Source: Bilabrum cf. latius
Taxonomy: Eukaryota
Assembly (NCBI GenBank): GCA_965178125.1
Contig: OZ237745.1
Coordinates: 868,001 to 932,000, forward strand
Direction of reading: 5' to 3'
DNA length: 64,000 nt
A model generated the notes under the pieces. The model was not told the DNA's origin. It saw only the letters and a list, made by a program, of their open reading frames with translations, and ran no database searches. Below, one piece after another: positions 2 to 64,000 of this stretch. How positions within the stretch are numbered: the first letter of the stretch is position 1; each line of letters begins with the position of its first letter. Position numbers and translations under genes: made by a program.

Positions 2-2558
2 TGTCATCAAGAGAAGCATCGCGATTCGCCTGGAGCCGCCGCTGGAGCTACCGCTCGAGCCAGCAAATCCGGAGCTGCCGCCGGAGCCGCCTTCGAAGGG
101 TGCGTCAGGACGGGCTGCTTCCGGGCGGTAGACGACGAGTCGGCCGAGGGCAGGCTGCACAGCAGCCTGCCCATGCGCGCCCTCCGGGTCGTGTACATCT
201 GCTGCGCCGCCAAGAAGAGGAACCAGGAGGGGCGCATCGAGGACGGGATGCAGTGGCTGGAGTCTCGCGGCCTGCTGGTGTCTGGCGGAGGCGGCCTCGG
301 CCACAAGGCGGGCCGCTGGGATTCGAGCACGCGAGGCAAAGGCAAAGGGAAAGGGAAAGGCAAGGGGAAGGCCGGCAGGGGCGGCGGCAGGGGCAGCAGC
401 AGCACCGGCGGCCTGCAGAGGCCCCGCCTCTGCGTCGTGACGCACGCGAGCGACCCCGATCGCATGCTCACGCACTCGCACGGATTCCTGGCAGTGGGGA
501 ACGAGAGGCTCTTCGATGGCGACGGGCACGGTGTCAGCTGCTGCAAGATGGGCAACGACTACGCGGAGGCCCAGGAGGCCGCGACGGCGGCGGCCGCCAG
601 GACAAGGGCCGGCGCGATGCCCCTCGCCCCCGACCAGAGCAAGGCCAGCGGCGATCATCACGATGCAACGAGCGAGGTGCTCGCGGGCCTGGTCGGGTTC
701 ATGAAGCTTCGCCTGCGGGGGCTCACCAAGTCGACAGGGCCGTTCAGGGCCATGGTGGACAGGATGCAGGGCCTGGTGGCACCAGAGCAGGCCGGCGGTG
801 CGGAAGAGGACGCCGGCCGGGCGGAGAAGCGGCACGTGCTGGTCCTTGCCGCCCTGCAAATCGCGGGGATCAAGGACGGAGGCAGCTGCCCTAGCTGCCC
901 CGCTCGAATCGCAGACGCGCTGGAGCGGGCCGAGAGAGCGGCGCCGGCCGGCAGCTTCGCCGAGGGAAGAAGGGTGGACGTGCTCAGGCCCATCGTGGGC
1001 GGAAACGCGCAGCCGTACGAGGCTCTGCAGCAGAAGGTCAAAGGCTCCTCGGGCAAGACCAACCGCCTCGCAGGGGACTGGATGTCACCGGGCGGGATCA
1101 AGGTGAAGGTCTTCAGGCGGGTCCTCCGCTTCTTCCTGCTCGGGGGAAGCGGGCCGAGCGAGGGGTCCCAGGGAGGTGCCGGCTCCGCCGCCCCCGGCAC
1201 TGGGGCCAGCAGGGCACGCGTCCTGGACCAGAAGCAACTCCTGGCGAGCCGCGCGTACGTGGACTTCGAGGACCCCTGGGCGCAAGACGGGGCCACGAGC
1301 CACAAGATCAGCTCGGTGTCGTGCTTCGACGCACGCGTCCTGGGGTCATCGCTGGAGCTCGAGCTGGAGGCGGAGGCGGAGGCGGAGGCGGCCGGACCCA
1401 GCTCCAGCTCCAGCTCCAGCTCCAGCTCCAGCTCCAGCTCCAGCTCGAGCGGATCTGTCGAGCCGGAGGAGCTGTCGGTCAGGGAGATACTCGGCCGGCT
1501 GGGCGACGAACCAGCGGGCGCAGACGACCGCGAGCCGGACCGGCTGGTGTGGTCGGCCAACATGATGCACACGAGGCTGCCCCACCCGGATGCCGCCAGT
1601 TTCTGGGAAGCGAAGGTTCCCTGCGTCTTCCTGCAGCTGGACAGCAGCGTCGCGGGCGTGTGGGCCGTCACCCGCAAGCAGAGCGGGCGGACGGCAGCGC
1701 CGGCAGGGGGGTTGGCGGCGGGGGCGGGGGCCGCCGCAGCAGCAGCAGGGCCGGCACCTTCGGCATCATCGTCGGCATCTTCTTCGGCAGCGCGTTCGGT
1801 CATCCCGCTGCCGCCAGAGGTGCCTGGCCGCGAGGGCATTCCTCTCGCACCGGCCTGCCGGCCTAGCGTGCAGCGCAACATCAACCGCATCGTGCTGGCC
1901 TGCGCGGCGACCAACCGCCGCTAGGTGCAGCAGCTGCTCGTGGTGCGGCTGCCGGACGGGTCGCGCGCGCTCCTCGCCGTGGCCATGGGCACGCGGGTCG
2001 CTTCCGTGCTGCGGTCGGTGCCCAGCGGGGGCACGGCCGAGGGCATGGGCATGGGCACGGCCGGGGGCAAGGGCAAGGGCGCGACCGGGGGCAAGGCGGC
2101 CGCAGCAAGTGCCGGCGAAGCCGCCCGGCGGCTCCTCGGGTTCTTCTCCAGACCCAGCGGGAAGCAATCCACTCCGGCAGGCGCGGCGGGCGCGGCGGGC
2201 GCGGCGGGCGCGGCGGGCGCGGCGGGCGCGGCGGGGTGGCGAGGTCGGGCACAAGCGGGGGCGCGAGCGCGAGGCGGGCGCCTCTGCCACCGGCATCCCC
2301 GAGGTTCGGTCCGAGGTTCCGGTTCGCCCCGGGAGTCTGTTCCTGGCCTCGGCCTCGCAGAGGGCCGCCTGGCGGCGCGGCGAGCGAGATGGGCACGGTG
2401 GGCTGCCGAATGCAGGAGGCGAGGAATCCGGATCCGACTCTACGTCCTACCGGCTCGGGCATCGCAAGGGACGCGCGCGCAGGGCAGCCAACGAGGAGGC
2501 TGCCACCGGAGGAGACTCGGAGGGAGCGGGTGACGCGCTCGACGGCGACGGACGCTGA
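2..2558 (+). CDS. Hypothetical protein, 5'-partial, low-complexity rich
   Basis: Frame is open from position 2 through ORF 173..1924 and continues across TAG 1922-1924 into ORF 1925..2533 (ATNRR*VQQLLVVRL). The 3' end is uncertain: TGA at 2531-2533 in the same frame, or TGA at 2556-2558 if the G run at 2233-2236 contains a 1-nt indel. No family recognised. Confidence 0.6.
1401..1446 (+). repeat. (AGCTCC)n coding microsatellite, poly-Ser
   Basis: Perfect hexamer tandem, in frame as a poly-Ser run. Confidence 0.9.
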
Positions 2559-3043
2559 GGATTGGGAAGGCAGCGTGGGAGGGTCGCGGTGGATAGGCCG
2601 GGGATGATGTGCAAATTCCGCGTTGCATTGCTTGAGTACACAACGTCTTGATGAATCCATCCGCGCGCATCGAGGAATCCACGGGTGCCCGAGACGCCCG
2701 TGCACCACCTCTCCGTCGGAACGCATGCATGCCCCAAAGCGGTCGGGCGCGTCTCGTGCGCCCCTCTTCGAGCCGTGAACTATAGCCCATCGTCGGGGCG
2801 ACACATTCCCGCCAGTTGTTGTCAATTCGCAATGTTCGACGCGGCCGCAGCGTCCAATTCCGACATTAGGGGTTGTTTCTTCGTGGAAGTGATTCAAAAC
2901 CGAACGGAATGATCTTTTTTATCAACGGCTGTGGTGATAATTTCTTCAGACAAGTGAGATGTGAATGGAAAGGGAAAAATTATCGACGGATATTCAAATT
3001 ACTACCACGGTTTTGTATGTCTTATTTCTGCGATCCTGTTTAA

Positions 3044-3116
3044 CGCGTTGGAGCTCCGTTGGTAGAGCGCGAGGCTCATAACCTCGAGGTCCCTGGTTCG
3101 ATCCCCGGCAACGCGC
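3044..3116 (+). tRNA. tRNA with CAT anticodon (Met), atypical core
   Basis: Cloverleaf: acceptor CGCGTTG/CAACGCG, D-stem GCTC/GAGC, anticodon stem CGAGG/CCTCG with loop CTCATAA (CAT 3077-3079), variable loop AGGTC, T-loop TTCGATC, followed by TTTT. Deviations: G8 and C14 in place of U8 and A14, one T-stem mismatch, C discriminator. Confidence 0.8.
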
Positions 3117-3164
3117 TTTTATTTTCACATTATTTTTTTATTTTTATTTTTATTTTTATTTTTT
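3117..3164 (+). terminator. Oligo-T Pol III terminator and (TTTTTA)n tract
   Basis: T runs begin immediately after the tRNA 3' end. Confidence 0.6.
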
Positions 3165-11184: not shown

Positions 11185-14100
11185 TTACCCACCGCCCGCG
11201 GTGAGTTTGGTGATGCGTTCCTGTCCCGCGGCCCTCGCCGGCGCGCAGGACGCGAGGAGCCCGCAGACAAAGGACACGATCACCACCGCCGCTACGATGC
11301 TCCAGGGAAACACCAGGGCGAGCGGAAGCCCCGTGAACAAGGACCTTTGCTGCGCGAACGCCCACGCCGACGCCGTCCCGACGCCCGTGCCAAGCAGCGC
11401 GGCCGCCGCCACGAGGAGCGAAGCCTCGTGCGCGTACACCCGGGCCAGCCTCGACGGAGACAGTCCCACGGCGCGGAGCACCCCGATCTCCCTCTGCTGC
11501 TCCCTGATGTTGGTCGCAACGCTCGCGAGCAGGCTGAAGAAGCACAGGAACATGACCACCACGGCCAGCGCCGCGAAGAGGAAGTTGATGGCCGCCAGCA
11601 CCGCCGACAGGTCCCCCAGGTCCGACGACACGGACCGCGCGCCCCAGGCAGCCGCCCGATCGTCGGAGACCAGGAGCACGTCTTGCGCCGTCGTCGTGCC
11701 CCGCGACGCCGCGAAGGACCCCGCCTGCGCGTCGGCGAGGTACGCGCTCCTCAGCGCCCCCCTCGCCTCCGAGGCCTCCTCCTCCCCCCCTTCCGCCGCT
11801 GCCGCCGCCCACCCCTTGTGAGGGCCCTCTAGGAGGGCGCCGCCCGCGCCGAGGAAGGAGGCGGACACGGCGGCCGCGAGCGTTTGCGCCGCCTCCACCG
11901 CTTTCTCGGCGTCCCCCGCCGCGGCCCTGCCCGCCGCGGACTCTGGCGCCGCGCCCCCCGGCACGGCCCACAGGCCCCGCCACAGGGGCAGGCAGCTCGT
12001 GGCCACGTGCCTCCCGCGCGCCGCGGCGAGGTCCAGGAAGGCCGGGAAGGAGGCGAGGGCGGACGTCTCCTCCTCGCCCGTCCGCGAGAAGGAGAACAAC
12101 GCGGAGGAGCGGAGCAGGGAAGCGGACCGGATCCTGCTGGCCCACAGCGAAGCCTGCACCGCGACGGCCTCGGCCTCGCCGCCGCCCGGCTGCTCCCCTG
12201 CCCCTCCCGGCAGCGGCCCCGCGTCTACGGTTGCCGCCTCCTCCTCCTCCTCCTCCTGCTCCTGCTGCTGCTACTCCTCGTCTTGCCGCTGCCGAGTACC
12301 GATGGCTGCTACGTAGTCCTACCCCCGCGGCGCCCGGCCGGCCGGGCCCAGGGCCAGTGACCTGGCCGCGTACACCGACCGGGCCCGGGCCCAGGCCCTC
12401 GCTCCCTCCTCCTCCTCCACCTCCTCCTCTCCGTCCTCACCGGGTGCTGCTGCTGATGACGACGACGACGACGACGACCGTGACGGCGGTGACAGCGGTG
12501 ACAGCGGTGAAGCGTCGGGCTGCTGCCAGACCTCTTCGCCCCCCTCGATCGACCCCCGCGACGTCCTGGCGCCGCCACGACGATCCGAGGGCACCTCCTC
12601 TGTCGTGGTCACCAGGGCCCTGTCGCCCCTCCGCCAGCCGGGCAGCTGCAGCCGCAGCGACGCGGACATGACCGCCCTCTGTCCCCCCCTCGCGCCGTAG
12701 AGTGCCCGCGTGAGCCCCAGCCCGTCGCGCCTGTCCTCTCCCCCGCTCCACTCGCTCCTGCTGGCAGAGGCGTACCGCAGGTAGGCCTCGTCCAGGGACG
12801 ACTCCACGCCCGGCGACACGGCAAAGGGGCGGATGGGCGCGGTCCCCAGCCGAGACACGCTCCGCAGAAGCACCGCGGGCATGAGGTAGTCCTGATCCGC
12901 TCGGAGCAGGGAGGACGACGAGCCGCCTCCCACGAAGCCGCCGAAGCCGCCTCCGCCGCCGCCGGACGAGGACGCGGACGAGGAGCTCGCGCCGTCCTCC
13001 ACCGCCGCACCACCGTCCGCTCCACTTCCGCTGCTCCTCGCGATCGCCCTGGATTCGAACCGAGAGCTCACCGCCGCCCAGCCAGCGCTCCCGAGCCCGC
13101 GGCGCGAATTGCCCAGCCCGCTCCGGCTCACCCACCGCACGGGCCCGGCCAGCCCGCCCACGCCGGCCCACGCGTCTGCCAGGCCGCGGTCCGCGCCGGG
13201 CGGAAGCACCGTCGCGTCCGCCTGCCCCGCCTGCAGCGCGACGGCGTGCTCGAGCGAGCGCACGACGCCCTGCGACCACTCCCTGTGGTCCGACAGGGGC
13301 TCGGAGGGGTCGGGCTGCGCCGCCAGCGCGCCGTCGGCCACGCGCGCCCACGCCGCGCCGTGCCCGGCAGAGGCCGCGGCGAGCGCGGTCTCCGCCACGA
13401 GCATGGCTTCCTGCGAGGCGGGGGCGGGGGGCGCCTGCAGCACCACCGGGCTGCCGAGCGCCTGCCTCGCCGTAAACTCGGCGGTCTGCACCTCCTGCGA
13501 CGCCGCCACGAAGACAAACACGATGAAGGCGATGGACAGCGCGTACATTGCCAGCGTCTTCTGGTTCCTCGTCCTGTGCGCCGCCAGGTTTGCCAGCGCC
13601 AGGTTCACCACCGCCTCTGCTTCCCACCACGACAGCAGCAGCGCCGAGACGACCTGCTCCACGATCGCCTCGAGGTTCATGGCGAGCGCCACCAGGCCGG
13701 CCATGAGGCCCAGGAGCACGGCCAAAAAGAGGTTGAAGAAGAGCCTCAGGTTGAGCGAGAGCAGGGAGAGGGGCAGCACGTAGTAGATCCCGAAGCCGAA
13801 CCCCACCGCCACGATGCCGGCGATGAGCGCCGCGACGGGCGGGGCCGATCCCGCCGACCGCTCCACGGTCACCTCCACCACCTTTTGCGCACCGCTGGGG
13901 CGCGACGCGTCCGCGGCCTCCCGCAGCGAGTCCTCCGTGAGCGCCTGCCGAATGGGCACGACGGCGGCGAGGGCGGGGATGGCGAGGGCCAGCACGGTGG
14001 CGGTGGCGACGGCCTCGCCGCTGAGCCGGCGGAGCGCGCTCCCGCCCGCGCCCGCGCCCAGCCCGGCCAGGTCGGCAAAGTTGCCCAGCACGGCGGCAGC

Positions 14101-16152: not shown

Positions 16153-16387
16153 CGCTCACGATGAGACGGATTGCCGAACAAGCAGAGAAAAATCTCCGAG
16201 CAAATGCAAAGAATACGATCGAAACAGCAGCCTACGCACCTCGCAATGCGTGCCAGGCAGTGCCAGAGCAACGTCGGAAAAATCCAAAAGAGCAAAACAC
16301 GGTTGCAACCGCATTGAATTATGTGTGTGATGAGTGGAGATGTGTCCGTTCTGGCGCCATCCAGATTGCCGCCAATCGGACGCAGGT

Positions 16388-17122
16388 ATGGCTGATAATT
16401 ACAAGCGAACTGGAATTCTGATTGGAAACTACGCGGAGGATGTGCTCGCGTACGACATGGTGACTCAGGGAAGGAAAACATCCGCAAAGTTCGCTGCGAC
16501 TAGCGAAGCTCAGTCTAGGTTTCCAAACCCGAAAGCCAGCGCAAAGGGTGGGACCGATGCGCTACGGAGGGACTTTGAGGACACAAGATATCGCGCCAGC
16601 ATGATGAGCTAGGGCGGTATGCCCTCCCACTTGCTGTTCAACCACGGGCCCAAGGGCTCCGAGGACCCCGAACACGATGATCCGACGCGGTTCTGCACCA
16701 TGAGTAGCATGGCGTTCGACCCGAGCAAGGCTGCAACCACAACAGAAGTCATTGCAGACCACCCCCCGCGAGCAGTAGCAGCAACCATGGAAGCGACGGT
16801 GCGGCGTGCCAAGGTAGCCGACCGGCACAAGAGCCTTGCAACGGGGCTGGACCCCAGGGATCCGAGAGGCAAGTCAGCGACCGCCTCGGCAGCCCCATTG
16901 GATGCCACACGAGGCCAGTTTGATACGTCCTCCCGGATGCAGCAGCGAGTGATCGAGACTAGGATGAAGATCCGGCAGAAGGCCGACGCGGAGCTCCGTG
17001 CCACGGGGCGGGGCACGTCGACGAGGGAAGCGGCCGCCGCGAGAGCGAGGGCAAAGGCAGAGGGCACCGCTTCGTTTGCTGCATCCTTCGGGCACGGGTC
17101 GATCCCGGGACTGCGGGGATGA
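16388..17122 (+). CDS. Ciliary microtubule inner protein-like (CFAP107/C1orf158-like), ~244 aa
   Basis: ATG 16388; N-terminal YKRTGILIGNYAED and downstream GMPSHLLFNHG resemble CFAP107-family motifs. One in-frame TAG (16610-16612); ends TGA. Confidence 0.55.
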
Positions 17123-20679: not shown

Positions 20680-20858
20680 GTTGCTGCCAGGATGCACAAA
20701 GTGCGACTGCGCCGAGATTGCGCGGCGATTGGGTCGCGGAACCACCGAATGTTGCACCGGCGCCGCGCAATTTGCAGCAGCTGATGCTTATTATTGGTTT
20801 GGATAGAGTCTGCTGCTGCTACGTTCTGTTCATCTCAATTTCCCCTCAGTTCTGATAA

Positions 20859-47800: not shown

Positions 47801-50800
47801 TTTCAAATCCACCGATGACTCGTGGAACAAATCGGTCATCGCCTGTGTACTCGGCAAACGAATCCGCGGAATCGTGCTGGGGGCTCTGCCGTGCTGGCCA
47901 CACTAGCTGCTGCATCGCAGTGCTTTCATTAGACACCGCAGCTGGCAGAATCCTTCTCTTGCATAAACGCATATCTGAAGGTTCTTGCACCGCAACACCA
48001 GCTGGCAAGAGGCACGACTCTTCCAAGCCGAGCATGGACATTCCTAGCCAGCTATAAACCTCGATGCTGTCATCTTCATCTACATCGTGTGATGACAGCA
48101 CTGCATTGCAGCTGGGCTCAATCGAGGCAGTATACACGCGGACTGGGCGGCCAGCAAAGAGCTGCACTTGTTTCAGCGACGATGTTCGTGATAGCGCTGA
48201 CACAGCAGACCCAGACAAATCGAGCAGCGACAGTGGCACTGGCGCGGACGCCAGGGCACCTGGTTCCAACCCAACTATGTTGGAGCCTCGCAAGTGCAAA
48301 GACGAGGAGAAGTGATAGGAGCAATCCTCCAGTACATACACATCTGGTTCACCACTTGTGCGATCCCATAGCCCGGACAAGTCCCGCACCAGCTTTGCGC
48401 TCTCCAGGCTGCCGTACCCTGGACGCATGCAGCAGCCGTGGTTCCACTGAGGACCAGCTCGGGCCCAGTCCGCCGGGCTATCGTCGTCTCCAATACGATA
48501 CGTAGGTAGCCCGCATTGATTGTTGTTGCACTGCCCGAAGAAAACAGTGCGCGAGTCAGACCGTAGCACGGCAACATGATCTGTGCCCATTGCCACGCCG
48601 ACAGCATCAGCACCCACCCTGAGCTCTAAGGCGACTGCTGGCAGCGACGATCTCCCCGGAGCATCGTATGGTTGCCGAAGAATTTGTTGACTCAGACCAA
48701 AGCAAAGCACGCGCCTAAATGGCTTGGTACTATTTGACGGGTCGTCGTTCCATCGTCCTGCGGAAGGCGCTACAATCACGCAGTGACCGTAGCTATTCAC
48801 CGAGCCAGAAAGAACTCTGACAGCCTGCCCGCGGTTGAATTGCACGTCACCGAATGAGAATATTTTGCGGGGGTTTCCAAAGCCAATCCAGTGAGAGGAC
48901 TAACCGTGCAGCCCCGAGCCCCAGCAACGCAAACCACCGCTTGGTGCAATAATAGCACACGCTGTCCCGCTACCTCCGGCATACACTCTAGCAACTCGCA
49001 TACCTCTGAAAAACTCTAACGGAGATAGAATCGGCACATAATCTGATCCAAGCTCAGCAGGGTCCTCGTCGTCCCCTAGATTGGTGCCAAATCGGCTCTG
49101 CGCCTCGCTCATGCCCAGCATGGTCCCCGAGCCAAACGTCCGGACAACGCCACCTGTCAGCAGCGCCACGACGGAGCCTGAATTCATTGCAATCTGTTCA
49201 ACGACTTTGCCATCAGTTGTCATGTTCACTATGTTTTGCCGCAGAGTTGCACCATACTGCACTTCCCGGCTCGGTCCAAGGCCGCAATTCGTACCTAGTT
49301 GACACTATCCGAAGCAAAGTAGCTGACCGTCTTGCCGCAAGATGCACGTTGACTATACATCGGTTGTTACAACTTGCTTGACAGGGCCCCCAACGGGAAG
49401 GAATCGAGCTTCTCTTGGCTCTCTTCTCAGCCCCGTGTCCGCCACGCCAAGCTGCTTGGCCTGGTTGTATCCCCAGCAGATAGCACCGCTTGTTGCCCCC
49501 GCAGAGGCATTCTTTAGGACAGCACAGCCGTGTCTTTTAGAGATTGACAAATCCGATACTCTGCCAAACGCACGCCAGGGAGTTTCCGAGGCAAGCGCAA
49601 CCTGCAGCCCGTCACTCTCAGCAGCGGCGACCAAGTCGATGTCACCAAGCGAAGCAGGCGAGGTGCCGAGCGGCATCTTGGTGACAGACGGCTGGTGCAG
49701 CGTGCTCCTCCAGAAGGCCTTTGGGGCATGCTTGCCGGCCTGGTGGTAGGAATGATCACCTACGCACCTGACCCTCCCGTTCGACATGATCACACAGGTG
49801 ACACCATCCGCAGCGTGAACAGACACGGGGTAGGCAGGCGCTACCATGCCTGGGGGGCACTCGATATTGCCAGGGGGTGGCACCCACGCCGGTGCAGCCA
49901 ACAGCTGGTAAGGTCTCTTCACCTCTGCGCCCTTGAATGATACGGTTGCAACGCTCGGTCTTGTGCTACTGCCTTCCGGCTGCGTTGCATTGGCCCAGTC
50001 AGATCGCAGGTACTCAGCCCCTACATCAGACACCAGAGTTGCACCGTGGGCAGCTTGCGGAGAGACTATCGTCGCCTCCCCCATGCCTTGCGCTACCATT
50101 AGTCCATCCGAATTCTATAGGAAGCAGACGATCTTGGTAGACGGGAAGTCTTGCACACTCTCGAAATCTCGTCTCTGCAATGGTGCGGTGCAGTCGCTGT
50201 TGAGAGCCTCGGAGTCCCAGCTGTCAGCGCCAGTAAGTCGGCTGCGTAGCACCCATGAAGGCATGCTGGTGCTCATATCAGCAGTTGCGAGCAGCTGGCG
50301 CGCAAATGTCGTGTTCTTGACCAAGAGAACGCACATCCTCGCCTCTTCGTAATTGCGATTGCCAGCTGCTTGCACCGCGAGGTAGCCCCTCGGGAGGCCG
50401 ACTAAGCTAGCAACAAACGCGTGCACCCCCCCATTGTCTCCATTTTCCTCCGGTATTGCGCTGTTTCGAGGGAACAGCAGCGGGTCCGGTTGCCCACGGC
50501 CACCAGTACCGGCCGGCCTGTACCCAAATACGCGAAGTCGCCCGTCGCGCGTGATCACCATTGTGCCCATGTCTGCCCGCGTTGCTCGAACGTACAGGAG
50601 ATTGCTATCCATGCCATCTCCAGCACCAGTACCGTTGTGAATAGAGCGTAGGTCCACCGGAGGCTCTAGCCTGGGCTCGAGGATGTCCTCGTGTTCGGCT
50701 TGCACCATGTCTTTCTTGCCCCACGGAACTAACTAGCCAGTTGACAGCACTGCCGCCAGCCCTTCCCCTGCACCAGTAGTCACGCCAACGATATACACTG

Positions 50801-51885
50801 GGCTGCAGTGCATCCTAGCGGTCGAGGATTCCACGCTGTCCGGCAAGTCGCCTCGGTCGGCGCACCCTGGCGGCACGCGCGGCCGATAGGGCCAATCGGT
50901 CGCATTGCGAGCATCAAGAACAGGCGCGATTTCCGCGTACCCCTCCTGCAGTCCAACGAAAGCCTAGCCTATTCCGTAGTTTCGACCAAGAGTCTTCGTC
51001 TGGGCGCTCTGCTAGCCCGCACAGTGCAGGCTGGTGCCGTTCAGGATCACGCAGGTCACATCAACCCCGCCCCCGATGGCGGTCACTGACACCCCATAAC
51101 CGGGATTGAAGATTCCAAGTGTCCCCTTATTAGTTATGGTTACCGGAGGAGCCCGAAAGGATGACCCTTCTCGTTGCCACGGTGCCACTGGCAGGATCGA
51201 GCCAATCCTATACGTGCCGATGTACGACGGCCCTCTCGCCTGAAATCCGCCATTCACACGCCCAACGCATCGAATTTGTCGGTCATGCGCACACACAAGA
51301 CACGTGTGCTGCAGCGCTGCGTGCAGGGAGGCAATTCCGTGTCTGCTGCTGCCGCCTTCGCACCCCGTCTGAATCAGCCTGAACTCGCTGCGATACCCTT
51401 TGCTTGTCGAAGAACTCTCGAAAGGCTCGACCTGGTAATTAGCATTTCTGCGAAAAAATGTAGCGGTGGGGCAACTTTGGGATTGCTGTGATTGGAGGAG
51501 GCACAAAGTAACTGAATGCATGCTTCCTGCCTCACGAACCGGCTGCGAGCAGTGATCCGTTTCGCAAGATCACATACCGCTGGTCGTTGTCTCCATTTGA
51601 ATCCGAATGACACAATACTGCAACTGCGTTGTCGCTTGGACGTGCAACCACCAGTCTCGGGTCCAGAATGGATTCATCGTCACCAATTATTGAGCTGAGT
51701 TGGCCTTCAACTTGGTTGTTGGCCTCGGATGAAGAGCATCGCACGAGTCCATTGAGGTATACGACGCATATGTCAGATCCACAGATCTCGACCTAAACTG
51801 CGGGATCCTCAACACACATAACCGAGATTACCAAAAGGAGCATCCACACCACTGGCGCACAACTGTACGGTTGCCTCCTCCACAT
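41847..51885 (-). CDS. Giant cell-surface protein: signal peptide, RCC1/BLIP-II-like repeats, IPT/TIG domains, Cys-rich module, multi-pass C-terminal membrane domain, ~3316 aa
   Basis: Exon 51885-51536, 88-nt intron, then exon 51447-41847 in one frame with 21 TAG (22 in the whole gene). Motifs GGLRCWGSGLHG*, ICWGYNQAKQLG, GGYPVTISGFGF, GGTDLLVSG*NLG, CPEGAFC, CGAGYTGPLCASC, KILVNHLQ, LGFFYSSYKHEYYFNEAV. Ends TGA. Confidence 0.8.
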
Positions 51886-52136: not shown

Positions 52137-53882
52137 ATGGGAAACAGCTCATCTGGGCCATCTGCTCGGGGCTCTCCTGTTCCTGGGGGACGCCAGGGGG
52201 CCGCTTCTCAATCTTCCTCTCAAGTCAAGCGGCTGGACGGAGAGCTTCGCAACAAATTCAAGAAAGGAGTGCAATTTACTATGAAAATTGTCGTGCGAGG
52301 TGCTCGAGGGACTGGAAAATCGTCCCTTGTCCGTCGTTTGCAAGGCAAACGTATTCCACAGTCTCACGAACCCAGCAAAGAGCTGCAGACATGCACGATC
52401 AACTGGGCGTACAAGTCGTCCGCCGACGTCGTTAAGGTGAGAATGCTCGATCTGTGGCAACTCCTCTTCTTTTTTTCATATCCTCTGCGCTGGCACCAGG
52501 TATGCGTGATGTCAGCCGACTGCACTTGCAGGTGGATGTGTGGGACGTTGTGGATCGCGCTCTTGACAAAGAGCAGGAAGACATAGTTGCTGTGGGAGGT
52601 GCCGGGATCGGCGACGATGAATTTGCTGGCTTGCCAGGGCAGTCCACTCGCGCAGAGCCAGCGGCTCCGAAAGATCCGTCAAGCGCCATGTCGCTCGACG
52701 CCGAATCGATTAATGTATATAAGGGAGCGCATGGTGCCGTGTTTGTCTGCGATGCGACCCAAGCTGACTCCATTCGTCACGCAGTTCATTTGCTGGCCAC
52801 TTCTCCCGTGTATATTCCCGCCGTTCTGCTGATCAACAAGGTAGACCTTGCACAGCCGGACGGCGAGGGGGGCGGAACCGGCGGGCGCCGCGCAATCGGC
52901 ACGGACGAAGTGCGGCGAATGGTCGAGGAGGCGCATGCCGGGCGCCCCGGAAGGAAGAAGGCGCAGCAGGCAGCCGCAGTCGCGGCCGAGGCCGGGCTGC
53001 CAGCCCTGGACCCTGTGCAGCCCGACGTCTTCGAATCATCGATGCTAGACGGGTACGGCCTGAAGATCCTCTACAACTACCTGAACGTTCCCTTCCTGGG
53101 CATGAAGCGGTCGAAGCTGGTAGAGGACCTCAGGAGGTGCGGGAAGGACCTCTCGGCTGCCTTGGAAGAGATCAAGGTGTACATCGACAGCCAGTCGTAT
53201 GGCCAGCACAAGCAAGCAGCCGCCGCTCGACGACTCTCGAAGCTCCCAACCGACCCACCGGGGACACCGGTGCGGTTGTCGCCCTCGGTCGACAGTCCGG
53301 GTGCCGCTAGTGGGGCCAGCTCCTCGAATGGTGCATCGCCTTCCGGTGCAAAGGCAGACGGTCAGGCTACCAGCGACTCGGGCTCTGCCACGGGAGGCGC
53401 GGCCGCCGGCCTCTCTGTGGGGCCTTATGGCGCACCACCAGGTGCGATCGGATCCGGAGGTGGGATGGCATCCAGTGAGGAAAAGAAGAAGGAGAAGGGT
53501 GGTAAGAAGGGCAAGAAGGGCAAGAAAGACAAGAAGAAGGACAAGGGGAAGGGGAAGGGGAAGGGGAAGGGGAAGGGTGCTGGGGGGCCATTCTCTGCTG
53601 GCGATGATGACGAGGAGGGCGAGTTTTCTCTGGGGGGTGGTGGCGATTTAGCTGATTTCTTGGCGGATGAAGAGGAAGATGAAGCTGAGCGACAGGCAGC
53701 AGCGAGAGCGAAGCAGGAGGCTGAGAAGCGCAAGCGTCTGATGGCGCAGTTTGGCAAGGGGCCAGAGAGCGACGAAGAAGATGACGATGATAGTGATGGG
53801 GAGATGCCAGGGCAGTATGCGCCAGCACCCGCACCGACGCCAGCACCCGCACCGACGCCAGCACCCGCACCGACGCCAGCAC

Positions 53883-53919
<37 letters not shown>

Positions 53920-54577
53920 CGACGCCTCGGGCGAATTGGATGATTTTGCAATCGGTGGCCCATCTGGTGGCGATGCTCTCGGTGGCCTGCTCGGCGGTGA
54001 TGACGACGACGACGTCGATGACCTTGCGCCGCCTCCCGCGGCCAGCAGCGGAGGCGGTCTTGGGGGCCTCCTCGACGACGATGACGACGACGATGAGGAT
54101 GGTGGTGTTCTAGGCCAGCCTCCCATGGCTGGTGGTGCTGCGTCGCTTGGTGGCCTGCTCGATGATGACGACGAGGACGACGACGGGGACATTGGCGGCG
54201 GTGGCGGCCAACACTTTGGCCTGTCGCCCGACGATGACTTGGACGGAGATGACGGCGAGATCAACGTGGCTCCGATCCCCATCGAGCCGGTCGTGCAGCC
54301 AGTGCCTCTCTCTTCATCAAAGACGGACACAAATGAAGATACCAAGGACGATGAGGCGGCGGGGGAGCCTTCCTCGGCAGCTCAGGCCATGATTGCAGCA
54401 GCACTCGAGGCAGCCAAAGAGCAGGCCGCGGCGGCAGCCGACAGCAGCTCCAAGAAGAAATCGTCCAAGAAGAAGGGCAAGTCGAAGAAATCCAGCGACG
54501 GCAAGAGCAAGAAGTCCAAGAAGTCGAAGAAGAGCAAGAAAGAAAGTGACGACGATGAGGAAGGGCTGCCACTGTGA
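52137..54577 (+). CDS. RABL6: Rab-like protein 6 (RABL6/RBEL1)-like GTPase, 781 aa, 2 exons
   Basis: Exons 52137-52436 and 52532-54577 (95-nt intron). Motifs KFKKGVQFTMKIVVRGARGTGKS, INWAYK, DVVKVDVWDVVD, NKVD, GYGLKILYNYLNVPFL, and an acidic then Lys-rich tail. No TAG; ends TGA. Confidence 0.88.
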
Positions 54578-54725: not shown

Positions 54726-57700
54726 TCACCGTCCAGTCATGGCAGCGTCTATCAGCCCAGCGCACGCCACCATCGCCTCCCCAACTTCAGCCTTGCTCAT
54801 GCCGGCCGCAGGCCACCACCAGGCACACCGCCGGCCACCACCAGTTCTTGGCGTACTGACCGGGCCTGTGGTGACAGTGGGAGGCTACACAGCGGCGCCA
54901 GCTCCGGCCACGTGACCTTCCAGCTCCTCTGTCCCTGTCCCAGCCACCTCGACTTCCAGCGGCGTGCCGTCCATGCCTACCAGGCTCACACTGCCGCGCC
55001 TCCCGCGCCGTTTCTTACTTTTTCTCAGCTCCGGCTTTGAAAATGCACTCGATCTTCCAACTCCCGCGACAGATTCGTCAGGTACTCGCTCAGCTTTCTC
55101 TTCTGACCCGGCAGACGGTGAGGAGCCATCTAGACCCAGCATTTCAGTGGCAGTAACGTGTCCGTGCTTCTCAGAAAGCTCCGTAAATCTAGTTTGCTCC
55201 TACAGCCCCTCTGCCAGTGCCGCCTGTTTCTTCTCGATCGCAATGTCGACCGAGTCCACCACCGGAGCAAGCAGCGCCTGCATATCGATGGGGCCCTTGA
55301 CCACTGCAAATGCAGCTCTCCACTTGCGTCTCTCGGCGACTGCTGCCTTGTGGTGCATCAAAAGCTCTGGCTGCACTCGTTTTTCTACAGTACCTGCAAC
55401 GCGCACCCATGACTGCACCGCAGTGGGGGTGCTCGGGTGCTCTTTCAACGACCATGGCAAGCTCAGGGGATTCGCGTGGAAGGGATACTCCGGGCCATAC
55501 CATCGCTTCAAAGAAATGCTGGAGCCAAGCGAGTCCAAAGCCTTGACCAGCGCTGGAAGGTACACGATGCCATTCCACATGAACGGTGGCACGCTCGGGT
55601 CTGCGTCTGAGCGGGCGGGCGTCTCCTCATTATGGTCGCTATCGCTTGAACTGACGCGCAATGACTTGCTTGGGTCATCTTGTGGATTGGTGACGTCATC
55701 GAGCGTCTTTGGAACATGCCACGAGGGTTCCTACGGCAGTCCTTGCCACTGCCTCGCCAGCCGGACCAGCTGCACGATCGCCTGCCTGAGCTCGGCAAGG
55801 GTACGAGTCAGCAGTGCGAAGGCTTCGTGTCTGTCTTGCAGCCTTCCCCCTCCCACCCATCTCCTTTCCCCGCTCGACAGATCACCCTTCAGGCGGACTA
55901 GCAAACGCTCAGTGCTAATTGTAGCGGCCACCAGCTCGCTGCTGATGCCAGTCGACCGGCCAAGCGCCACTGCTTGTAGACCGCCAGGAGATAGCGAGCC
56001 CAGTCCCCGCCGCTGCGATGGTTCCTCGGTTTCGTCGTGCCTCGCATCGTTCTCGACACGTCTGTGCTCTCCGACCAGGGTTCCATCCTCTGAATTGTGC
56101 TGCTTTCTCTGAATGTAAGCGAGCCTGCTCTCGACGCGTCGTTCGAGCTCACCGAGGTCGACGTCCTGCTGCTTGGCCACGGCCTCGGCACCCGCGCGCC
56201 CCAGCGTGGCTTCGCTGGCCTAAAGAGCACTGAGCAACTCAAGGTCGTTCCCAAGCTCCCGAGCCATCGACTCCTCTCGCAGGGCATCGACCGTGGACTC
56301 CGCTAGCTTGATCTCCGACAGGGCCTCTCCAAGCCGGAGGGGTCTCTACCTCGACCTGCCAGGCGGTGCGCCCGAGCCCCGACGCGTGGCCTACCCACCG
56401 CTACGGGGGTTCGCACCCACGGATGAACTGAGCCTTTCTGCGGGCACATTTCGGCTCGCTGCCAGTCTTGCCTCCACCTTGGCTGTCTCGGCTGCGCTTG
56501 TCTTGGCCTCTCTGGCACGGCGCGCGTGCTCGCTCTCAACCCGCACGAACGTGTCGTCCCAGCCAGCCTCTTGCTTGGCCGCAAAGTCTGAGTGGATCTT
56601 CTGCAAGCGACGATTTTCCCGTTTGTATTTGGGAATGCGTCTACCGATCCCGTCTCCTTGCTATACGGATGTACTAGCAAAGGCGGGCTGATTTATGGCT
56701 GACTCGTCAAGGGACTCCAGTCGCGGCGTGGTCTTCGGCTACGAGGCTCTCATTGGTCCGCCTGCCTCGTGAGCCCCGTCATCTCCATGCTCCGCAGGCA
56801 CTACGCCCCAGATGCGCCGCAGGGCCTCGTGTTGCTTGAGCAGCAGCATGTCCTCGAGGCTTCCACGTCCGGGGACGAACTTGCGCCGGTGCTGGCCCCG
56901 CCTCAGAACGAAGCTGGAAGGCACGCGATGCAGATCTTCCTGCGGACCGTCCCTGCGCGAATGCCACGGAGCGAGAGTGCATCAAGAAACGAAGTTAAAA
57001 GATAAGGCGAAGCAAAAAAAGGGCTTTGGCGACCCAACCCTGTCATCCGGGCGTTGATTGAGATAGCATTCCATCAACAGTACACTCACTTGAACTTGAC
57101 ATTGAGGTAGCCCCCATGAAGCACGTCTACTATTGTGGCAGGGTGCCCTTTCCTGTTACCAACAGGACCATCAATACCAGGAATTCTACCGTCTTTTGCA
57201 TGCCCAGCAGTAGGTAGAGGTGCTGAGCTGGACGCACGTCTACCTCCTGGCACAGATTCGCCCATCTCCTACTCTGAGGCAGCCTGCAGCCGCAAGACTC
57301 GCTCTCTCTCTTGCATTTGTTCCCTATAAGCCTCCGTGCAGTACCGTCTCCTCAGTGGCCAGTCGTCTGTGAAGGACAGCCCGGGAGGGGCATCCATGCG
57401 GGGCCGCCGGAAGAAGCACTCCACAGTCTCGCCTTCTCTGAACGGTATGGCGCCCGCGACATGCCTGGCAAACCTCCACTCTACCTTGCGCAGCCTCTCT
57501 TCGTTGTCCTCTTCGGTTCGCAAGTCCTGCGTGGGCAGTGCAGCAGACCGAGCAACGAACAGCCTGGCGCTTCGTCTCGCCCGGAGCGCTTCTTGCCGGA
57601 TGGCTCCAATCTGCTACAGTGCTGCCTCGGACCGCAGCCGCATTCGCTCTGCTAAAGATGCCGACACTGCACCGCTGGAGCTCAAATTGATTGCAGCTGC

Positions 57701-58864
57701 TCGCTGCCCGCCACGCGCCTGCAACGAGTGCTGCATGTGCACGAACGACGACATGTGCGGCAAGTGTGCCAACGATTCATTGCGAGTTTCCGGCTGGCCC
57801 GTGCCGGACTCAATGGACCGCAGCTCGGTGGCACGACCTACTTCTTCCGAGCCTGCCTTTAAATCCTAAGAGGGAGCGCCAGCGCCGTTGGGTGCGCTTG
57901 CGCCGCCTTGCAGAGGGCCTCCTTGTTCATCTTGGAGTGGCGAGGGAGAGAAGCCCATCGATGCATGGTGAAGTTCTCTAGTCACCTGCTGGGCAATAGA
58001 AGCATCGGTTACTTGGGCTCCTGTCGACCCGATGCTGCTGCTGCCGTCAGGGGATGAGGGCTGCCTGGCCTGTGCGATGGCCAGCAACTCGCGGTTGACC
58101 GCCGCGGCGTCTGGTTGAGATCGCTCTGCCGCTGCTCGAATAAATGCCGTAGAATCCTTGAAACTTACTTCTGTTGCTTTCCCACCGTTCCGCAACTTTG
58201 ATGCTTCCGCCGATGCACTCTCCCCAGCCCGAGAGTCGCCGTCATCATGGTCGCCCTCGATTGCGGCTGCAGACTCCTGCAGCCGCTGCTGCAGGGCATT
58301 GTATCCTAGTGTCTCCACGATGTCTGCAGTGGCTTCCTTCCACAGCCCCTCCCGGACGCTTTCCGCTGGCAAGGCAGCTGCGAAGTGGTACGGCGGCAGC
58401 GCATCTTGCGCGAGTTCTAGGAGACGTCGGTTGTCCTGAAGAAAAGCCAGGCCACGAGATACAGCCAAATCTTTCGTCTCGAAGGATAACGGCTGCTATC
58501 TAATACGACAAACTACCAGTGCTGTGGTCCACAGTCTACCATCCACTGCAGGAAGTGGGCAAATTGGCATCGCGTCCACCGCTCTCGGTCCCAACAGGTT
58601 TCGGACCAACGTGGTTGACATTCTCCAAGATCCATCAGATTCCTAGCCGGATAAAAGAGCCTTAATATGATCTTCGATATTGTGCCCGTACTTGCTCCTC
58701 CTGCCGGCCTCTTCAGCTCGTTTCTTTGAAATAATGCGCAATCTCGTGTGCACGTGCACGCGCTTCAAATAGGTTTCTGGGGAGTCTGTGCTCGATTTCC
58801 CCTTGCTTCTCGCGTGCCTAGAGACCTTTGAAGACAAAAAGGCATCCACAAACGCTTTATTCAT
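54726..58864 (-). CDS. Hypothetical coiled-coil protein with a Tudor/SH3-like module, ~1333 aa
   Basis: Exons 58864-57090 and 56952-54726 (137-nt GT-AG intron), 13 TAG. Motifs FREGETVECFF and PATIVDVLHGGYLNVKFKDG..RVP across the splice junction. Ends TGA; start uncertain. Confidence 0.65.
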
Positions 58865-59862: not shown

Positions 59863-62800
59863 TTACTGGTACACTCCCACTGCCCCGGTGGCTTGACGGC
59901 GACACACAGGGCACTTCGGTTCCTGCCCGCGATCCCGCGCCTCTCTCACGACCTGCTGGGTGCACGCAGAGCACATGACCAGGTGACCGCAGGGCACCAG
60001 CACGGAGCACACGCGATGCTCCATGCACACCACGCACTCCCTGTCTCCCCCGTGGGCAGGACCGTCTTCCGGCATCGGACCATCAAACCCACCGGCAGCG
60101 CCGTCCGCGCCGCTGCCGCCGCTCACCATCCGGTCCAGCCCGAGCTGCCTGAGCAGCTCACCGTGGTCGTCGTCATCTTGATCCACCACCGGATTCAACC
60201 CATCTATGTCCTCCTGTAGGGCATCCAACTCCTCCTGGAGCTCCTGATCGACGTCCTCATTGTCCTCTCCGCCTAGAATGCGAGCCGCTGACTGCATCGC
60301 GGGACCGAACCCTGTTGCCATCAGACACCCGAACTGAACGAGGCGCAGCTTCCAGTCAGGGCCCAAGGCATCCCCAAGCGGCACGTAATCCTCCGGCAGT
60401 TCCATGCCCAGCATAGCCTTTGCCCTGTTAATGAGACCCATTTGCTCCTGCTCCGCATTGTGCAAGGCAGCCACGCACCGCTTCAGCTCTCGAATAAAAC
60501 CAGCCGATAGCCCTGCAGCGCCGCCGTTTGTTGCAGGCGAACCGAGCATGCACCTGCGAACTGTGTCTCGCAGCATAATGGCACCAGGACCTTCTGCCTC
60601 TGCCTCCATCGGGATGATTCCACCACTCCTGGGAGACCAATCCGCACCAGCACCTGATGCAGGCGGCGGGAGACCATCGCTCATGCTTGTGCTCTCGCCA
60701 GCGGCTAATTCGCCGCCCTAATGGCCACTCTCAGCGTCGTCGGCAGCTTCACCGCTGCCTCCCTCGGCATGTTCACGAGGCTCTGCTTCGTCCTGAGCAC
60801 CTAGTAGGGCGGGCGCGCTCTCCCCTTCTAGAGCTTGCAGCATGCGCGCGAACTGGAGCCGCCGGTTGTCGAGCAGCTCGGCGCGGGAGGTGCCGTCTAC
60901 CACCGTGTGGGTCCTTTCTGTCCACGCGCACGCATTCGAGACGATCGCCAGCTGAGCCGGGGTCGGGTCAACGAGGAGGCCGTGTACCGCCAGGGACCGG
61001 ATGGACTCGGCCTCTTGCCTCTCGCGAGCACCGTGGTCCGGTTTCTCCGAGTTCGACGGGCTAACGCTGAGAAAGTCATCTATGCTGCTGCCCCAAATCA
61101 AATCGCGGGCCCTGTTCTCGTCGCAAAGGACCTCCAAGCCGGCGGCTGCCTGTTCAGCACGCAAGCCCTCAGGATCTCCGCCGCCTACACCGGACGAAGA
61201 GCCTGCTGCTGTGGCCGCCGCGGCTGAAGCCTAGATCTAGTTGGCGGTGGACCTCTGCAGCGCAACGGTTCCACTCGCTATCTCTACAGCCAGCTCTGCG
61301 TTCTGGTCTGCCAAGGAGGCCGGTCCCGGAGCGGGGTGAAACCTTCCGCTCATGCTGCCGCCGTGACCAATGTGTCCTACTACGTCTCGTACCGGCGGCT
61401 CCGCAAACAGCCGAAAGTAGCTGGAGCTGATCCTTCGCATGGAGCGAATCACGCTGAGCTGAAGCTGCAGGCGAGCATCCTGCGTCAGTCTTGGGCATGC
61501 CAGCAGCATACGCAGGATCTCGGACGGGCTCAGCCGCGCGCTAGCGAACCTTCGATAGAGAAGAAATACGGCCCTGTCTTCGTGCGACGGCTGCTCTTGC
61601 AGCGCTCCAGTTGCTAGCCGCCCTAGCGCGACCCTGTACTGCTCGTCCCCATCGACCATCAGAGAGGCGCATGGCACTCTGAGTCGAATTCGGTCGGGTA
61701 GCACGAGCGAGTAAGCAGCGAGAATTGAGTCGTCGATGGTACGTAAGGCCACTCGGGCCGTGTCATCATCCGGCAGGCCTGGGACGTTCCGCTGTCGGAT
61801 CGCGGCGTCGGTGGACTTGAGCCTCTAGAGCACAGGGGCGCCTTGTAGGCCGTATGCCAGCGATGCCCGTCGGTCAAGCCCGATGCCCCTGCGCAATAGC
61901 CTGTGGATCTAATACGCACTGACTCCAGCCATTGCCAGTGCCGCTGCATAGTAAACCACGGACTTTATCCGTATGCTGTCCACCTTGGCATTCCAGGCGC
62001 CGATCGAGCGCTCCACGAGCAACCCGCCAGCGGTGCCAGGAACGCAGCCCCGAAGCTCCAACATCGTGCCTCCTTTTCTATCGGGCACTGCGAACAGTTC
62101 CCCACCAATGAGCGCTTTGGATCCGACTGGGAGCGACTCTTCCACCACGGCCATGCTCTTGGCGACCGTCCCGAGGCCTTGCAGCAACCCGGCGAGAGAA
62201 GGTAGGAGCGAGACGATACTGCCCACCCACGTGCGATTGACTGCCCACTTTTTCTGCTGCTTGTCTTTCCAGAGGCGCTCGGTTTTATGCGGTGCTGGCT
62301 CCTCCAATCCCACTGCGGGAGCCCCAGGTGCGGTTGCAGGCGGACTGGCAGTGGAGACCCACCCGTATTCGAACGGTCTGCCACCGGCTCGTTTCGAAGA
62401 TTTTCTAAGTGCAGGCACTCGGGCAGAGACACGGCCCCTTGGCAGCACGTGCGACTCTTCTTGCGCTCTTGCTCCGCTTCCGCTTCCGTCCTGCCTAAAC
62501 CTCCGCTGGTGCGGGGTGGTACCGTCCAGGAGGTACTCGAGCAGGAAGGACGTGAGAGTATCTTCCGGCTGCGACGATACTGCAGGCTTCTGTCCGGGTG
62601 AGGCTGCTGCAGCTGCTGCTGGCTGCGACTCTGTGGCAGTGGCATGATTCCGAGTGCCGAGTTGGTGCTCGCCTGGCAGCATGGAGGAGAGGTGCTGGAG
62701 ATCCGAGCGAGCGCCGCCTCCCAGCGTGTACTTGCTTGCCTCGTGGGCCAAATCACTTTCTTTCATGACCCCCGCTTCGAGAAGCGTTTCATTCAGCACG

Positions 62801-63333
62801 CCGCCGGGCATGGTAATCTCCATTCGCCTTTCACCAGTCTGGCGTAGCAGGGAGTCCTTACCCGGACCACGTGATCCGAAACGGGGCTGTACGCGGGATG
62901 ACATTGCCAGTCTAGCACCCAAATCATGCGGAGAGATTGCAACCTGTATTCCTTCATCAGTGGTCAAGGTAGGCGAGTGATGCACGCAGCAGCTGCCCTA
63001 GGACACTACAATGTCCGTTCTAACTCCTAGCGCCTCCATGAGAGTCGAAGCAGCGCGAAGGACATAAACTTCGCGCTTTGCAACAGCCGGCTACTTCCCC
63101 ATCGTTTCGATCGCGTCAGATTTGGTCGACAAGGCGCCCTCGATGAAGCCCTTTGCACAGGAGCCGTGCTTCTTGCCTAGCCGGGCCAAATCCATCGCAT
63201 CCCGAGGGATAATCTGCCACCTGTTGAATGAAGTAGCTTTACTTGAAAAGTATAAGCCCGTGATCCCTGCGACGATCGCTGCTGAGGCCGAGACAGCGGC
63301 TGCCGCCAGCAATTCCCGGTCTTTGTCCTGCAT
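59863..63333 (-). CDS. MUL1/SP1-like E3 ligase (TM, GIDE-like, TM, C-terminal C3HC4 RING), ~1156 aa
   Basis: One frame with 7 TAG (63091, 62998, 61909, 61825, 61237, 61231, 60718). N-terminal TM, GIDE-like EESLPVGSKALIGGEL, a second TM, RING CVVC..LVPCGHLVMCSAC..CPVCR. Ends VYQ-TAA. Confidence 0.72.
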
Positions 63334-63581
63334 ACAAGACGCTCAAAGCCAAGCAAGCAATCAGATTCTCGACAAGTGACAAACAGTGTAAAAGTTGTGT
63401 TGCCTTGACGAGCAACAAGAGACGCGGGCCAATACTTATCGAAGGAATGAGGCGAATTCTCCAAACGAATAGCCTGTCCTCGTCACGATCTGTGCCACTC
63501 TACTTGGCGTCTAGGCTGTACCGATCATATTGCTTTCACTTGATGAGCAAACTGAAGCTGTCGAAAGTCTAATACGCTCCA

Positions 63582-64000
63582 ATGGCTTCGGAATTGGAGT
63601 GTCCAATTTGCTGCGAGAGCTATGAAGATATAGCCTATCGGTGCAAATAGTGCAAATTCCTGGCTTGCGAGTCCTGCGTATTGCGCCGTTCCCAGACAAG
63701 CAATCACTGCATCGGCAACTGTTCATTACGGATTGTACCGAGACGCTGGAGGCAACACTACGATGTTGTCGAGGTCAAGCACATTGCATTGGATGACGGG
63801 AATTCAAACGTGTTGTCGCTGAAAATAGCAGAGCAAGGAGAGATTTTCGCAGAATACGAAGCAGAGTTGAAGAAAGCACAGGCTGAATAGAAAGGAAAGG
63901 ATAATCGGTCAGCTCTTCGTACATGCCAAGCATTCGTGCTTCGAGGCATGCACGCCGAGGCCATACGGCTGGGTCGGTTACATGGCATCCCACCAGCGAA
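63582..64000 (+). CDS. RING-type zinc-finger protein, 3'-partial
   Basis: MASELECPICCESYEDIAYRCK*CKFLACESC...HCIGNC. TAG at 63648 sits inside the CxxC and a second TAG is at 63888; the frame is open to the window end. Confidence 0.65.

Follow-up and report, generated by a model that had tools for sequence, protein, structure and literature searches.

Probable use of UAG as a glutamine codon, with UAA and UGA as terminators, in intron-bearing nuclear genes of a 64-kb stretch from Bilabrum cf. latius

The stretch of DNA analyzed here, referred to as the window, comprises 64,000 nt of contig OZ237745.1 from Bilabrum cf. latius (positions 868,001 to 932,000 of the forward strand), and all coordinates below are positions within it. 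A preliminary description had proposed that the nuclear genes of this stretch read UAG as glutamine, with UAA and UGA still serving as stops, and the meaning of UAG in these genes is the subject of this study. The analysis bore out that interpretation, as UAG was found to be a sense codon in intron-bearing nuclear genes, with TAA and TGA as the sole terminators of 14 gene models. The reading of UAG as glutamine with UAA and UGA as terminators in nuclear genes, which corresponds to NCBI table 15, was judged highly probable.

Gene content of the window

The 14 gene models included four with RNA-supported splicing, and most of the others were taken from the first ATG of a stop-to-stop open reading frame (ORF). 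Two starts were set differently: the tubulin-tyrosine-ligase-family (TTL) gene was read from a chosen internal ATG, and orf843, which is open at its 5′ end, was read from the window edge.

Three conserved housekeeping genes, which the preliminary description had already named, lie next to one another and were found to be genuine. The glycogen/starch phosphorylase gene (17258..20700, minus strand; Pfam E value 8.7e-296) has five exons and 981 codons with one TAG at 19079-19081, ends at TGA, and contains introns at 19818-19918, 20032-20124, 20208-20397, and 20503-20594, which have GT..AG joints in RNA-type contigs. The gene for polynucleotide phosphorylase (PNPase; 20859..25287, minus strand) consists of two exons separated by an intron at 24519-24708, and its 1391 codons include ten TAG and end at TGA; the product carries two RNase_PH domains together with RNase_PH_C and KH domains according to Pfam. 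IMP4, a U3 snoRNP protein with a Brix domain, is encoded at 25338..26496 on the plus strand in three exons and 327 codons, with one TAG each in exons 1 and 2, a TGA stop, and introns at 25453-25543 and 25636-25719 whose joints in RNA-type contigs are likewise GT..AG. Its third exon matched PDB entry 7mq8 with an E value of 7.2e-77, and its C-terminus lies near the ends of the PDB chains.

To the left of the phosphorylase gene, an FtsX-like permease is encoded at 11185..16155 on the minus strand (1655 codons, three TAG, TAA stop; Pfam FtsX, 7.3e-25). The CFAP107-like ciliary gene (16388..17122, plus strand; 244 codons, one TAG at 16610-16612, TGA stop) adjoins both the phosphorylase and the FtsX-like gene. 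It was absent from the gene list of the preliminary description and was located through period-3 mismatches to a related metagenome contig, L001, the phase pattern being that of a plus-strand gene. Its product gave a weak match to the PDB structure of CFAP107, an inner-microtubule protein of cilia (8g2z, E value 0.007). At the left edge of the window lies orf843 (2..2533, plus strand), which has one TAG, a TGA stop, and no Pfam match; its GC content is 0.83 at third codon positions (GC3) and 0.63 at second positions (GC2).

To the right of IMP4, orf1926 (26698..32478, plus strand) encodes a low-complexity, membrane-like protein without Pfam match, with seven TAG and a TGA stop. A (GTGCAG)13 microsatellite at 31520-31597 lies within this frame and is translated as an (Ala-Gly) run, and the contigs of all compared sequencing runs break there. 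The TTL gene (32537..34774, plus strand; Pfam TTL, 1.4e-38) has 745 codons from the chosen ATG, five TAG, and a TGA stop. Downstream of it, a small spliced gene without TAG was seen on the plus strand in segments 34959-35110, 35296-35407, and 35408-36202, in contigs of run X5 only. An FSP1/AIF-like pyridine-nucleotide-disulphide oxidoreductase with long insertions is encoded at 36970..41478 on the minus strand (1502 codons, 13 TAG, TGA stop); it was recognized by Pfam as Pyr_redox_2 (1.3e-17) and gave PDB matches to FSP1. The largest gene of the window, at 41847..51521 on the minus strand, encodes a giant RCC1-repeat and IPT-TIG membrane protein (3224 codons, 21 TAG, TGA stop; Pfam WD40_RLD, TIG, and RCC1_2) and forms one frame of 3240 aa only when TAG is a sense codon. 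Further to the right follow orf713 (52502..54577, plus strand), a GTPase-like low-complexity protein and the sole model without TAG, orf751 (54726..56849, minus strand; eight TAG, TGA stop), orf609 (57086..58864, minus strand; five TAG, TGA stop), and a protein with a C-terminal RING finger (59863..63333, minus strand; 1156 codons, seven TAG, TAA stop; Pfam zf-C3HC4_3, 3.8e-12). Neither orf751 nor orf609 had a Pfam match.

In-frame TAG codons and terminators

The 14 models comprise 15,984 codons, among which 84 in-frame TAG codons were counted, spread over 13 of the 14 models. These numbers closely matched those given previously, which were roughly 87 TAG codons among about 16,000 codons, with TAG in 13 of 16 genes. 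The raw count in stop-to-stop ORFs was also 87, from which four TAG codons upstream of the chosen starts were subtracted (two in the TTL gene and one each in the FSP1-like gene and orf609) and to which one in the CFAP107-like gene was added. There was no internal TAA or TGA in any model, as had been claimed, and the terminal codons were TGA in 12 models, TAA in two, and TAG in none.

For stop-to-stop ORFs, the absence of internal TAA and TGA is true by construction. Since this argument is circular, it was tested whether removing each of the three stops lengthens real frames, using positions 16001-64000 of the window. With TAG as sense, the ORFs reached 3240, 1926, 1540, 1230, 1159, and 1088 aa, and the summed length of ORFs of at least 300 aa rose from 7,127 aa under the standard code to 18,789 aa. 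The longest ORF increased from 1130 to 3240 aa when TAG was made sense and stayed at 1130 aa when TAA or TGA was made sense. In 100 second-order Markov simulations used as the null model, the TAG-sense maxima were 943 aa for the longest ORF and 8,787 aa for the sum, and both were exceeded by the observed values. The TGA-sense sum of 22,941 aa was within the simulated range (maximum 23,383 aa).

Independent support for the terminators came from ORF ends that coincide with the ends of homologues. The phosphorylase C-terminus has the same endpoint as that of its 97% identical relative P0002, the FtsX-like C-terminus matches that of its 86% relative P0290, and the IMP4 end agrees with its structural homologues, so that the TGA of phosphorylase, the TGA of IMP4, and the TAA of the FtsX-like gene are backed by homology.

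TAG made up 84 of the 669 presumed glutamine codons (12.6%), next to 166 CAA and 419 CAG. If UAA and UAG (UAR) were read jointly, this CAA/CAG ratio would lead to an expectation of about 33 in-frame TAA codons, and none was observed; TAA also terminates the RING-finger and FtsX-like genes. Consequently, UAA has not been reassigned together with UAG, and the UAR = Gln code of table 6 was rejected.

The share of UAG among glutamine codons dropped as GC3 rose across the 14 models. In the genes richest in GC3, it was 1/32 (phosphorylase, GC3 0.88) and 3/56 (FtsX-like, GC3 0.89), and among genes with a lower GC3 of 0.59-0.73 it was 8/30 in orf751, 10/63 in the PNPase gene, and 21/150 in the giant gene. 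This scarcity at high GC3 could be a plain effect of composition or could reflect selection against a weakly decoded codon.

Retention of UAG in spliced transcript-type contigs

Contigs from four of 19 sequencing runs, which date from 2025 (X1, X5, X6, and X7), were compared with positions 17000-36999 of the window. Run X1 is a DNA run that contains every word sampled from the window and may be its source, and X5, X6, and X7 come from two studies other than that of X1. The X1 contigs showed no differing letters over this range outside a repeat and no joints bounded by GT..AG; the two joints listed for X1 were GC..GC and GA..CA, with sides of 21 and 28 letters. The X5, X6, and X7 contigs skipped nine segments that are retained in X1, and all nine were bounded by GT..AG within the allowed shift of the cut. 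These introns, with lengths of 84-190 nt, belong to the phosphorylase gene (four), the PNPase gene (one), IMP4 (two), and the gene at 34.9-35.4 kb (two). Since the skips are intron-sized with canonical GT..AG joints, X5, X6, and X7 were read as transcript-derived, and the spliceosomal introns that had been taken as the mark of nuclear DNA were confirmed by the nine joints.

Within the compared range, 24 of the 25 in-frame non-intronic TAG codons lay inside contig pieces without differing letters, including pieces that span joints. The phosphorylase TAG was retained in contigs of X5, X6, and X7, an X5 contig crossed the PNPase intron joint without differing letters, and six of the seven TAG sites of orf1926 were covered unchanged by X5 contigs. 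The sole difference listed in the gene-bearing part, at 21851, was outside any TAG codon, and the remaining ones were found at position 36008 and, past 36286, in the repeat. Since 24 of 25 TAG sites were unchanged in contigs of the spliced type, the mRNA consensus retains UAG. The possibility of RNA editing from TAG to CAG, which the preliminary description had named as a way in which its proposal could fail, was thus tested at the level of the contig consensus, which omits rare variants and in which a minor edited fraction would not show.

Conservation of the genes and of TAG sites in relatives

Among the relatives of the window phosphorylase, P0002 and P0123 were 97-98% identical, P0003 and P0125 were 81% identical, and all others were at most 62% identical. 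The 81% form is carried by metagenome contig L001 (5.4 kb), which was the one close relative among 23 loci of a metagenome scan; L002-L022 were 40-46% identical, L023 was a 42-residue fragment with 64% identity over residues 744-785, and these 22 loci were left out of the comparisons. Contig L001 is colinear with the window, with nucleotide identities of 77.5% in phosphorylase, 69.5% in a middle block of 730 nt, and 65-67% in the FtsX-like gene, and the gene order phosphorylase, CFAP107-like, FtsX-like is preserved. The CFAP107-like ortholog at L001 2763-3623 (minus strand) showed 76% amino-acid identity and has a TAG at the same site as the window gene. In-frame TAG codons on L001 numbered one in phosphorylase, four in the aligned part of the FtsX-like gene, and five in the CFAP107-like gene. 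The L001 genes terminate at TAA or TGA, and the phosphorylase stop is at the place corresponding to that of the window.

Between the window and L001, the differences at codon positions 1, 2, and 3 were 0.138, 0.093, and 0.451 in phosphorylase and 0.319, 0.243, and 0.613 in the FtsX-like gene, and the phosphorylase codon differences comprised 278 synonymous and 132 nonsynonymous ones. Judged by this substitution pattern, both genes are under purifying selection. In two orthologous genes, FtsX-like and CFAP107-like, the window and L001 have TAG at the same codon. The reading of UAG as sense therefore extends to at least one further lineage, whose nucleotide identity to the window is about 77%, and UAG stands in frame in conserved, spliced, and transcribed genes under purifying selection.

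The public protein sequences of close relatives bear traces of the same codon. The predicted protein P0122 stops directly before the TAG of L001, and P0125 starts anew from the following Met; one window TAG site lies just past the end of P0215, and another just ahead of the start of P0280. Standard-code gene calls are thus split at TAG in these relatives. A protein search with the giant protein returned three close-relative fragments (P0279-P0281) and one distant match, and a search with the FtsX-like protein returned two matches, P0290 and the 30-44% identical homologue P0291.

Identity of the residue encoded by UAG

Eight TAG columns were available in alignments of homologues, one in phosphorylase and seven in PNPase; two mostly-gap PNPase columns were dropped, leaving six usable columns. 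The phosphorylase column had Q in 120 of 120 homologues and E in none, and Q was also present in PDB entries 4bqe and 1ygp. The PNPase column at "CDLxREL" had Q in 89 of 137 sequences, I in 34, and E in one. The other four PNPase columns were variable, with A in 56 of 131 sequences in the first, E 41, A 24, D 23, and Q 8 of 135 in the second, K 34, E 18, R 17, and Q 8 of 134 in the third, and E 21, A 15, S 13, and Q 12 of 123 in the fourth. Codetta-like log-odds over the six columns were +9.26 bits for Q, −1.94 for A, −1.97 for E, −3.8 for S, and −4.01 for K, and leucine fell below the eight best residues (under −5.95 bits). The enrichment in glutamine that the preliminary description had required of genome-wide alignments was present in these six columns. 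On these log-odds, readings of UAG as Leu or Ser were rejected, and pyrrolysine was rejected because the conserved columns are Q.

Other genes contributed single sites. In the FtsX-like protein, L001 shares the TAG in "AENAEGxQD", a site that is Q in the distant homologue P0291, and the TAG in "PRGxDYV" is Q in P0290. The TAG in IMP4 exon 1 is opposite Q (human), D (yeast), and D (Chaetomium) in PDB chains; exon 3, which was also aligned to PDB, has no TAG. In the PDB alignments of the TTL protein, the TAG sites fell in variable, low-confidence linkers, two TAG sites of the FSP1-like protein were opposite K and M at variable positions, and the CFAP107-like TAG was opposite T in one weak PDB match. 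The RCC1 region of the giant protein had no PDB match; it contains an RCC1-like motif "CFGxCQLG" beside "FFGQCNNNQCG", which was not counted as evidence.

Orthologous codons were compared directly between the window and L001. The partners were TAG-CAG in four cases, TAG-TAG in two, TAG-GAG in two, TAG-CAC in two, and TAG-GAC in one, the last lying in a poorly aligned stretch. With a residue replacement pattern learned from the same window/L001 alignments, the partner likelihood was −25.9 bits for Q, −34.8 for H, and −36.4 for E. Close-relative protein fragments had Q at four window TAG sites, E at two, and K at one (Q −17.5 and E −31.2 bits), and the two partner tests summed to −43.4 bits for Q, −67.5 for E, and −97.0 for K. 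Glutamine, as proposed earlier, was thus the best-fitting residue in the columns, the orthologous codons, and the partner likelihood.

Several points weigh against this assignment or against its supports. Only two of the six usable columns are decisive, with E, K, E/Q, or A commonest in the other four. The Q residues in P0002, P0129, and P0290 may come from a gene caller that read TAG as Q, so that the L001 codon pairs alone escape doubt about the code used in calling. Relatives with 91-94% identity showed E at two TAG sites and K at another. At ordinary glutamine codons, Q was kept in 90% of pairs, and the partners of TAG were nonsynonymous more often. With regard to transcription, run X5 is labelled "RNA? 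(probably DNA)" and X6 and X7 are labelled "RNA?", and the RNA comparison covers 17000-36999 only. The 14 genes are also a small sample with respect to a possible second meaning of UAG.

The first rival reading holds that UAG was reassigned to a residue other than glutamine, with glutamate the most plausible and lysine next. TAG and GAG differ by a single substitution, E occupies two of the three window TAG sites spanned by the 94% relative P0129, P0280 has K at one, and a window GAG is opposite an L001 TAG twice. Among the PNPase columns, one is richest in E (41/135), one has E 21 versus Q 12, and one is richest in K (34/134). However, E is represented by 0 and 1 sequences in the two conserved columns, both residues are disfavored by the column log-odds and by the summed partner likelihood, and the commonest orthologous partner codon is CAG. 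We therefore considered another residue improbable.

The TAG partners in P0129, P0280, and L001 cover all three first-position neighbors, CAG, GAG, and AAG. This suggests that TAG arises from, and decays to, these codons at weakly constrained sites, with fast turnover.

A second rival would give UAG a dual meaning, glutamine within genes and termination in some contexts, such as near the 3′ ends of mRNAs as in the ciliates with ambiguous codes (PMC4967479). The rarity of UAG in the GC3-richest genes, phosphorylase and FtsX-like, would fit residual competition by the release factor eRF1. However, TAG is not the terminal codon of any of the 14 models, the homology-backed ends are TGA, TGA, and TAA, and up to 21 UAG codons are read through in a single ORF, for which efficient decoding is needed. 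A dual meaning was likewise rated as having little probability.

That UAG is untranslated, the TAG codons being assembly errors, RNA-edited sites, pseudogene lesions, or sites of low-level readthrough, is very improbable, since the DNA contigs and the spliced contigs from two other studies agreed on TAG in 24 of 25 cases, the frames are interrupted only by TAG and never by TAA or TGA, conservation and purifying selection continue 3′ of TAG, two genes share a TAG codon with their orthologs in a relative of 77% identity, and leaky readthrough could not yield a 3224-codon gene with 21 stops.

Decoding of UAG and comparison with known codes

If UAG is read as glutamine, it would be decoded by a tRNA-Gln with the anticodon CUA, together with an eRF1 whose recognition of a third-position G is lost or weakened and which would spare UAG. 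Among anticodons, CUA alone pairs with UAG without also pairing with UAA, an argument already made for Iotanema and the uncultured rhizarian exLh (PMC5304391).

Reassignments of UAG alone are rare, as UAA and UAG normally change together (PMC5304391, PMC11687900). Reading of UAG alone as glutamine is known from Iotanema spirale, Protocruzia tuzeti, and two phyllopharyngean lineages (PMC11687900, PMC5304391). The preliminary description had correctly listed Iotanema and phyllopharyngean ciliates but had missed Protocruzia tuzeti (PMC11687900). I. spirale (Fornicata) has the same three codon meanings as the window and the same need for a CUA tRNA-Gln and a UAG-sparing eRF1 (PMC5304391, PMC9161772); its eRF1 has a changed GTS motif, and relatives with the standard code retain GTS (PMC9161772). 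In P. tuzeti and the two phyllopharyngean lineages, UAG alone is likewise read as glutamine and UAA is still a stop (PMC11687900).

TAG-recoded phages, crAss-like and others, use the same table 15 code with TAG as glutamine and TAA and TGA as stops (PMC9523058). In contrast to these phages, the window genes are eukaryotic and nuclear, with spliceosomal introns, IMP4, TTL, CFAP107, and RCC1, and an origin from a phage or giant virus was rejected on the spliceosomal introns and eukaryotic housekeeping genes. The table 6 codes of many ciliates, hexamitin diplomonads, Ulvophyceae, Streblomastix, and Amoeboaphelidium, in which stops became glutamine codons via mutated tRNA-Gln (PMC5304391, PMC11687900), read UAR as glutamine, whereas the window keeps TAA as a stop. 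In the rhizarian exLh (UAG = Leu) and in Scotinosphaera (UAG = Ser), UAG alone was reassigned and UAA was kept (PMC11687900), but the residue differs.

Placement of the organism

A phosphorylase tree was built with MAFFT and FastTree from 44 of 121 sequences, which were those with an organism name and 29 of the 30 with the highest scores. The clade of the window phosphorylase grouped with ten other sequences and with Bicosoecida sp. ms1 (support 0.82), whose phosphorylase is 58% identical and which is the sole named member of the clade, and it was separate from the ciliate sequences. This single-gene tree weakly suggests a bicosoecid affinity. The preliminary term "flagellate" agreed with the CFAP107-like ciliary gene and the TTL gene.

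The window differs from the organisms that are known to use the same code. The GC content per 4-kb interval across the 64 kb was 57-75%; with this composition, introns of 84-190 nt, genes of up to 9.7 kb, and one long contig, the window appears unlike typical ciliate macronuclear DNA. Iotanema belongs to Fornicata, in contrast to the position of the window phosphorylase beside a bicosoecid. It is also an anaerobic caviomonad studied for mitochondrial reduction (PMC9161772), whereas the PNPase of the window has an N-terminal extension. This extension suggests an organelle with a genome, which argues against Iotanema.

No report of UAG read as glutamine in a stramenopile, a bicosoecid, or another GC-rich flagellate was found in full-text searches, with subscription-only papers outside their scope. 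The code variant itself is known, and its bearer is probably new and its origin probably independent. More specifically, but only tentatively, the window might represent the first instance of a nuclear stop codon being reassigned in a free-living flagellate of stramenopile-like (bicosoecid-related) affinity, independent of Iotanema and the ciliates and shared by a small clade, represented by several public runs and one metagenome and including relatives whose phosphorylases are about 97% and 81-83% identical. Under this tentative placement, the usual idea of AT-driven codon capture may not apply in such a GC-rich genome. The avoidance of UAG where GC3 is highest, together with its quick turnover to CAG, GAG, and AAG, suggests that the reassignment may be recent.

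Because UAA and UAG normally change jointly, each independent case of this kind tests how eRF1 and the CUA tRNA separate the two codons. The long genomic contig, the spliced transcript contigs, and the sequenced relative make the present case open to direct study. Gene callers using the standard code already fragment the public genes of this lineage (P0122/P0125, P0129/P0215, P0279-P0281), and its proteome will be misannotated unless table 15 is applied.

Repeats, tRNA genes, and composition of the window

The GC content changes in a step near 16 kb, with the high-GC part on the left. A chimeric window joined at this step was considered and rejected, as the synteny with L001 runs across it. 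The left part contains two GC-rich tandem arrays, which together occupy 7 kb. The first, at 3403-8201, consists of about 124 copies of a 42-nt unit with 83% matches and 11% indels, and in the second, at 8250-10526, a 99/146-nt unit is repeated about 23/11 times. Since the repeats open all three minus-strand frames, ORFs in the arrays were not taken as gene evidence. The only tRNA gene found in the 64-kb window was a tRNA-Met(CAT) at 3044-3116 on the plus strand, with none on L001; it is located between orf843 and the 42-nt array.

A high-copy element occupies 36250-36750, between the gene at ~35.4-36.2 kb and the FSP1-like gene. The summed contig depth rose there from 14-21 to 300-3000 in X1 and was also raised in X5-X7, and numerous contig breaks and divergences, variant letters, and loose ends were seen. 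The element is probably a dispersed repeat.

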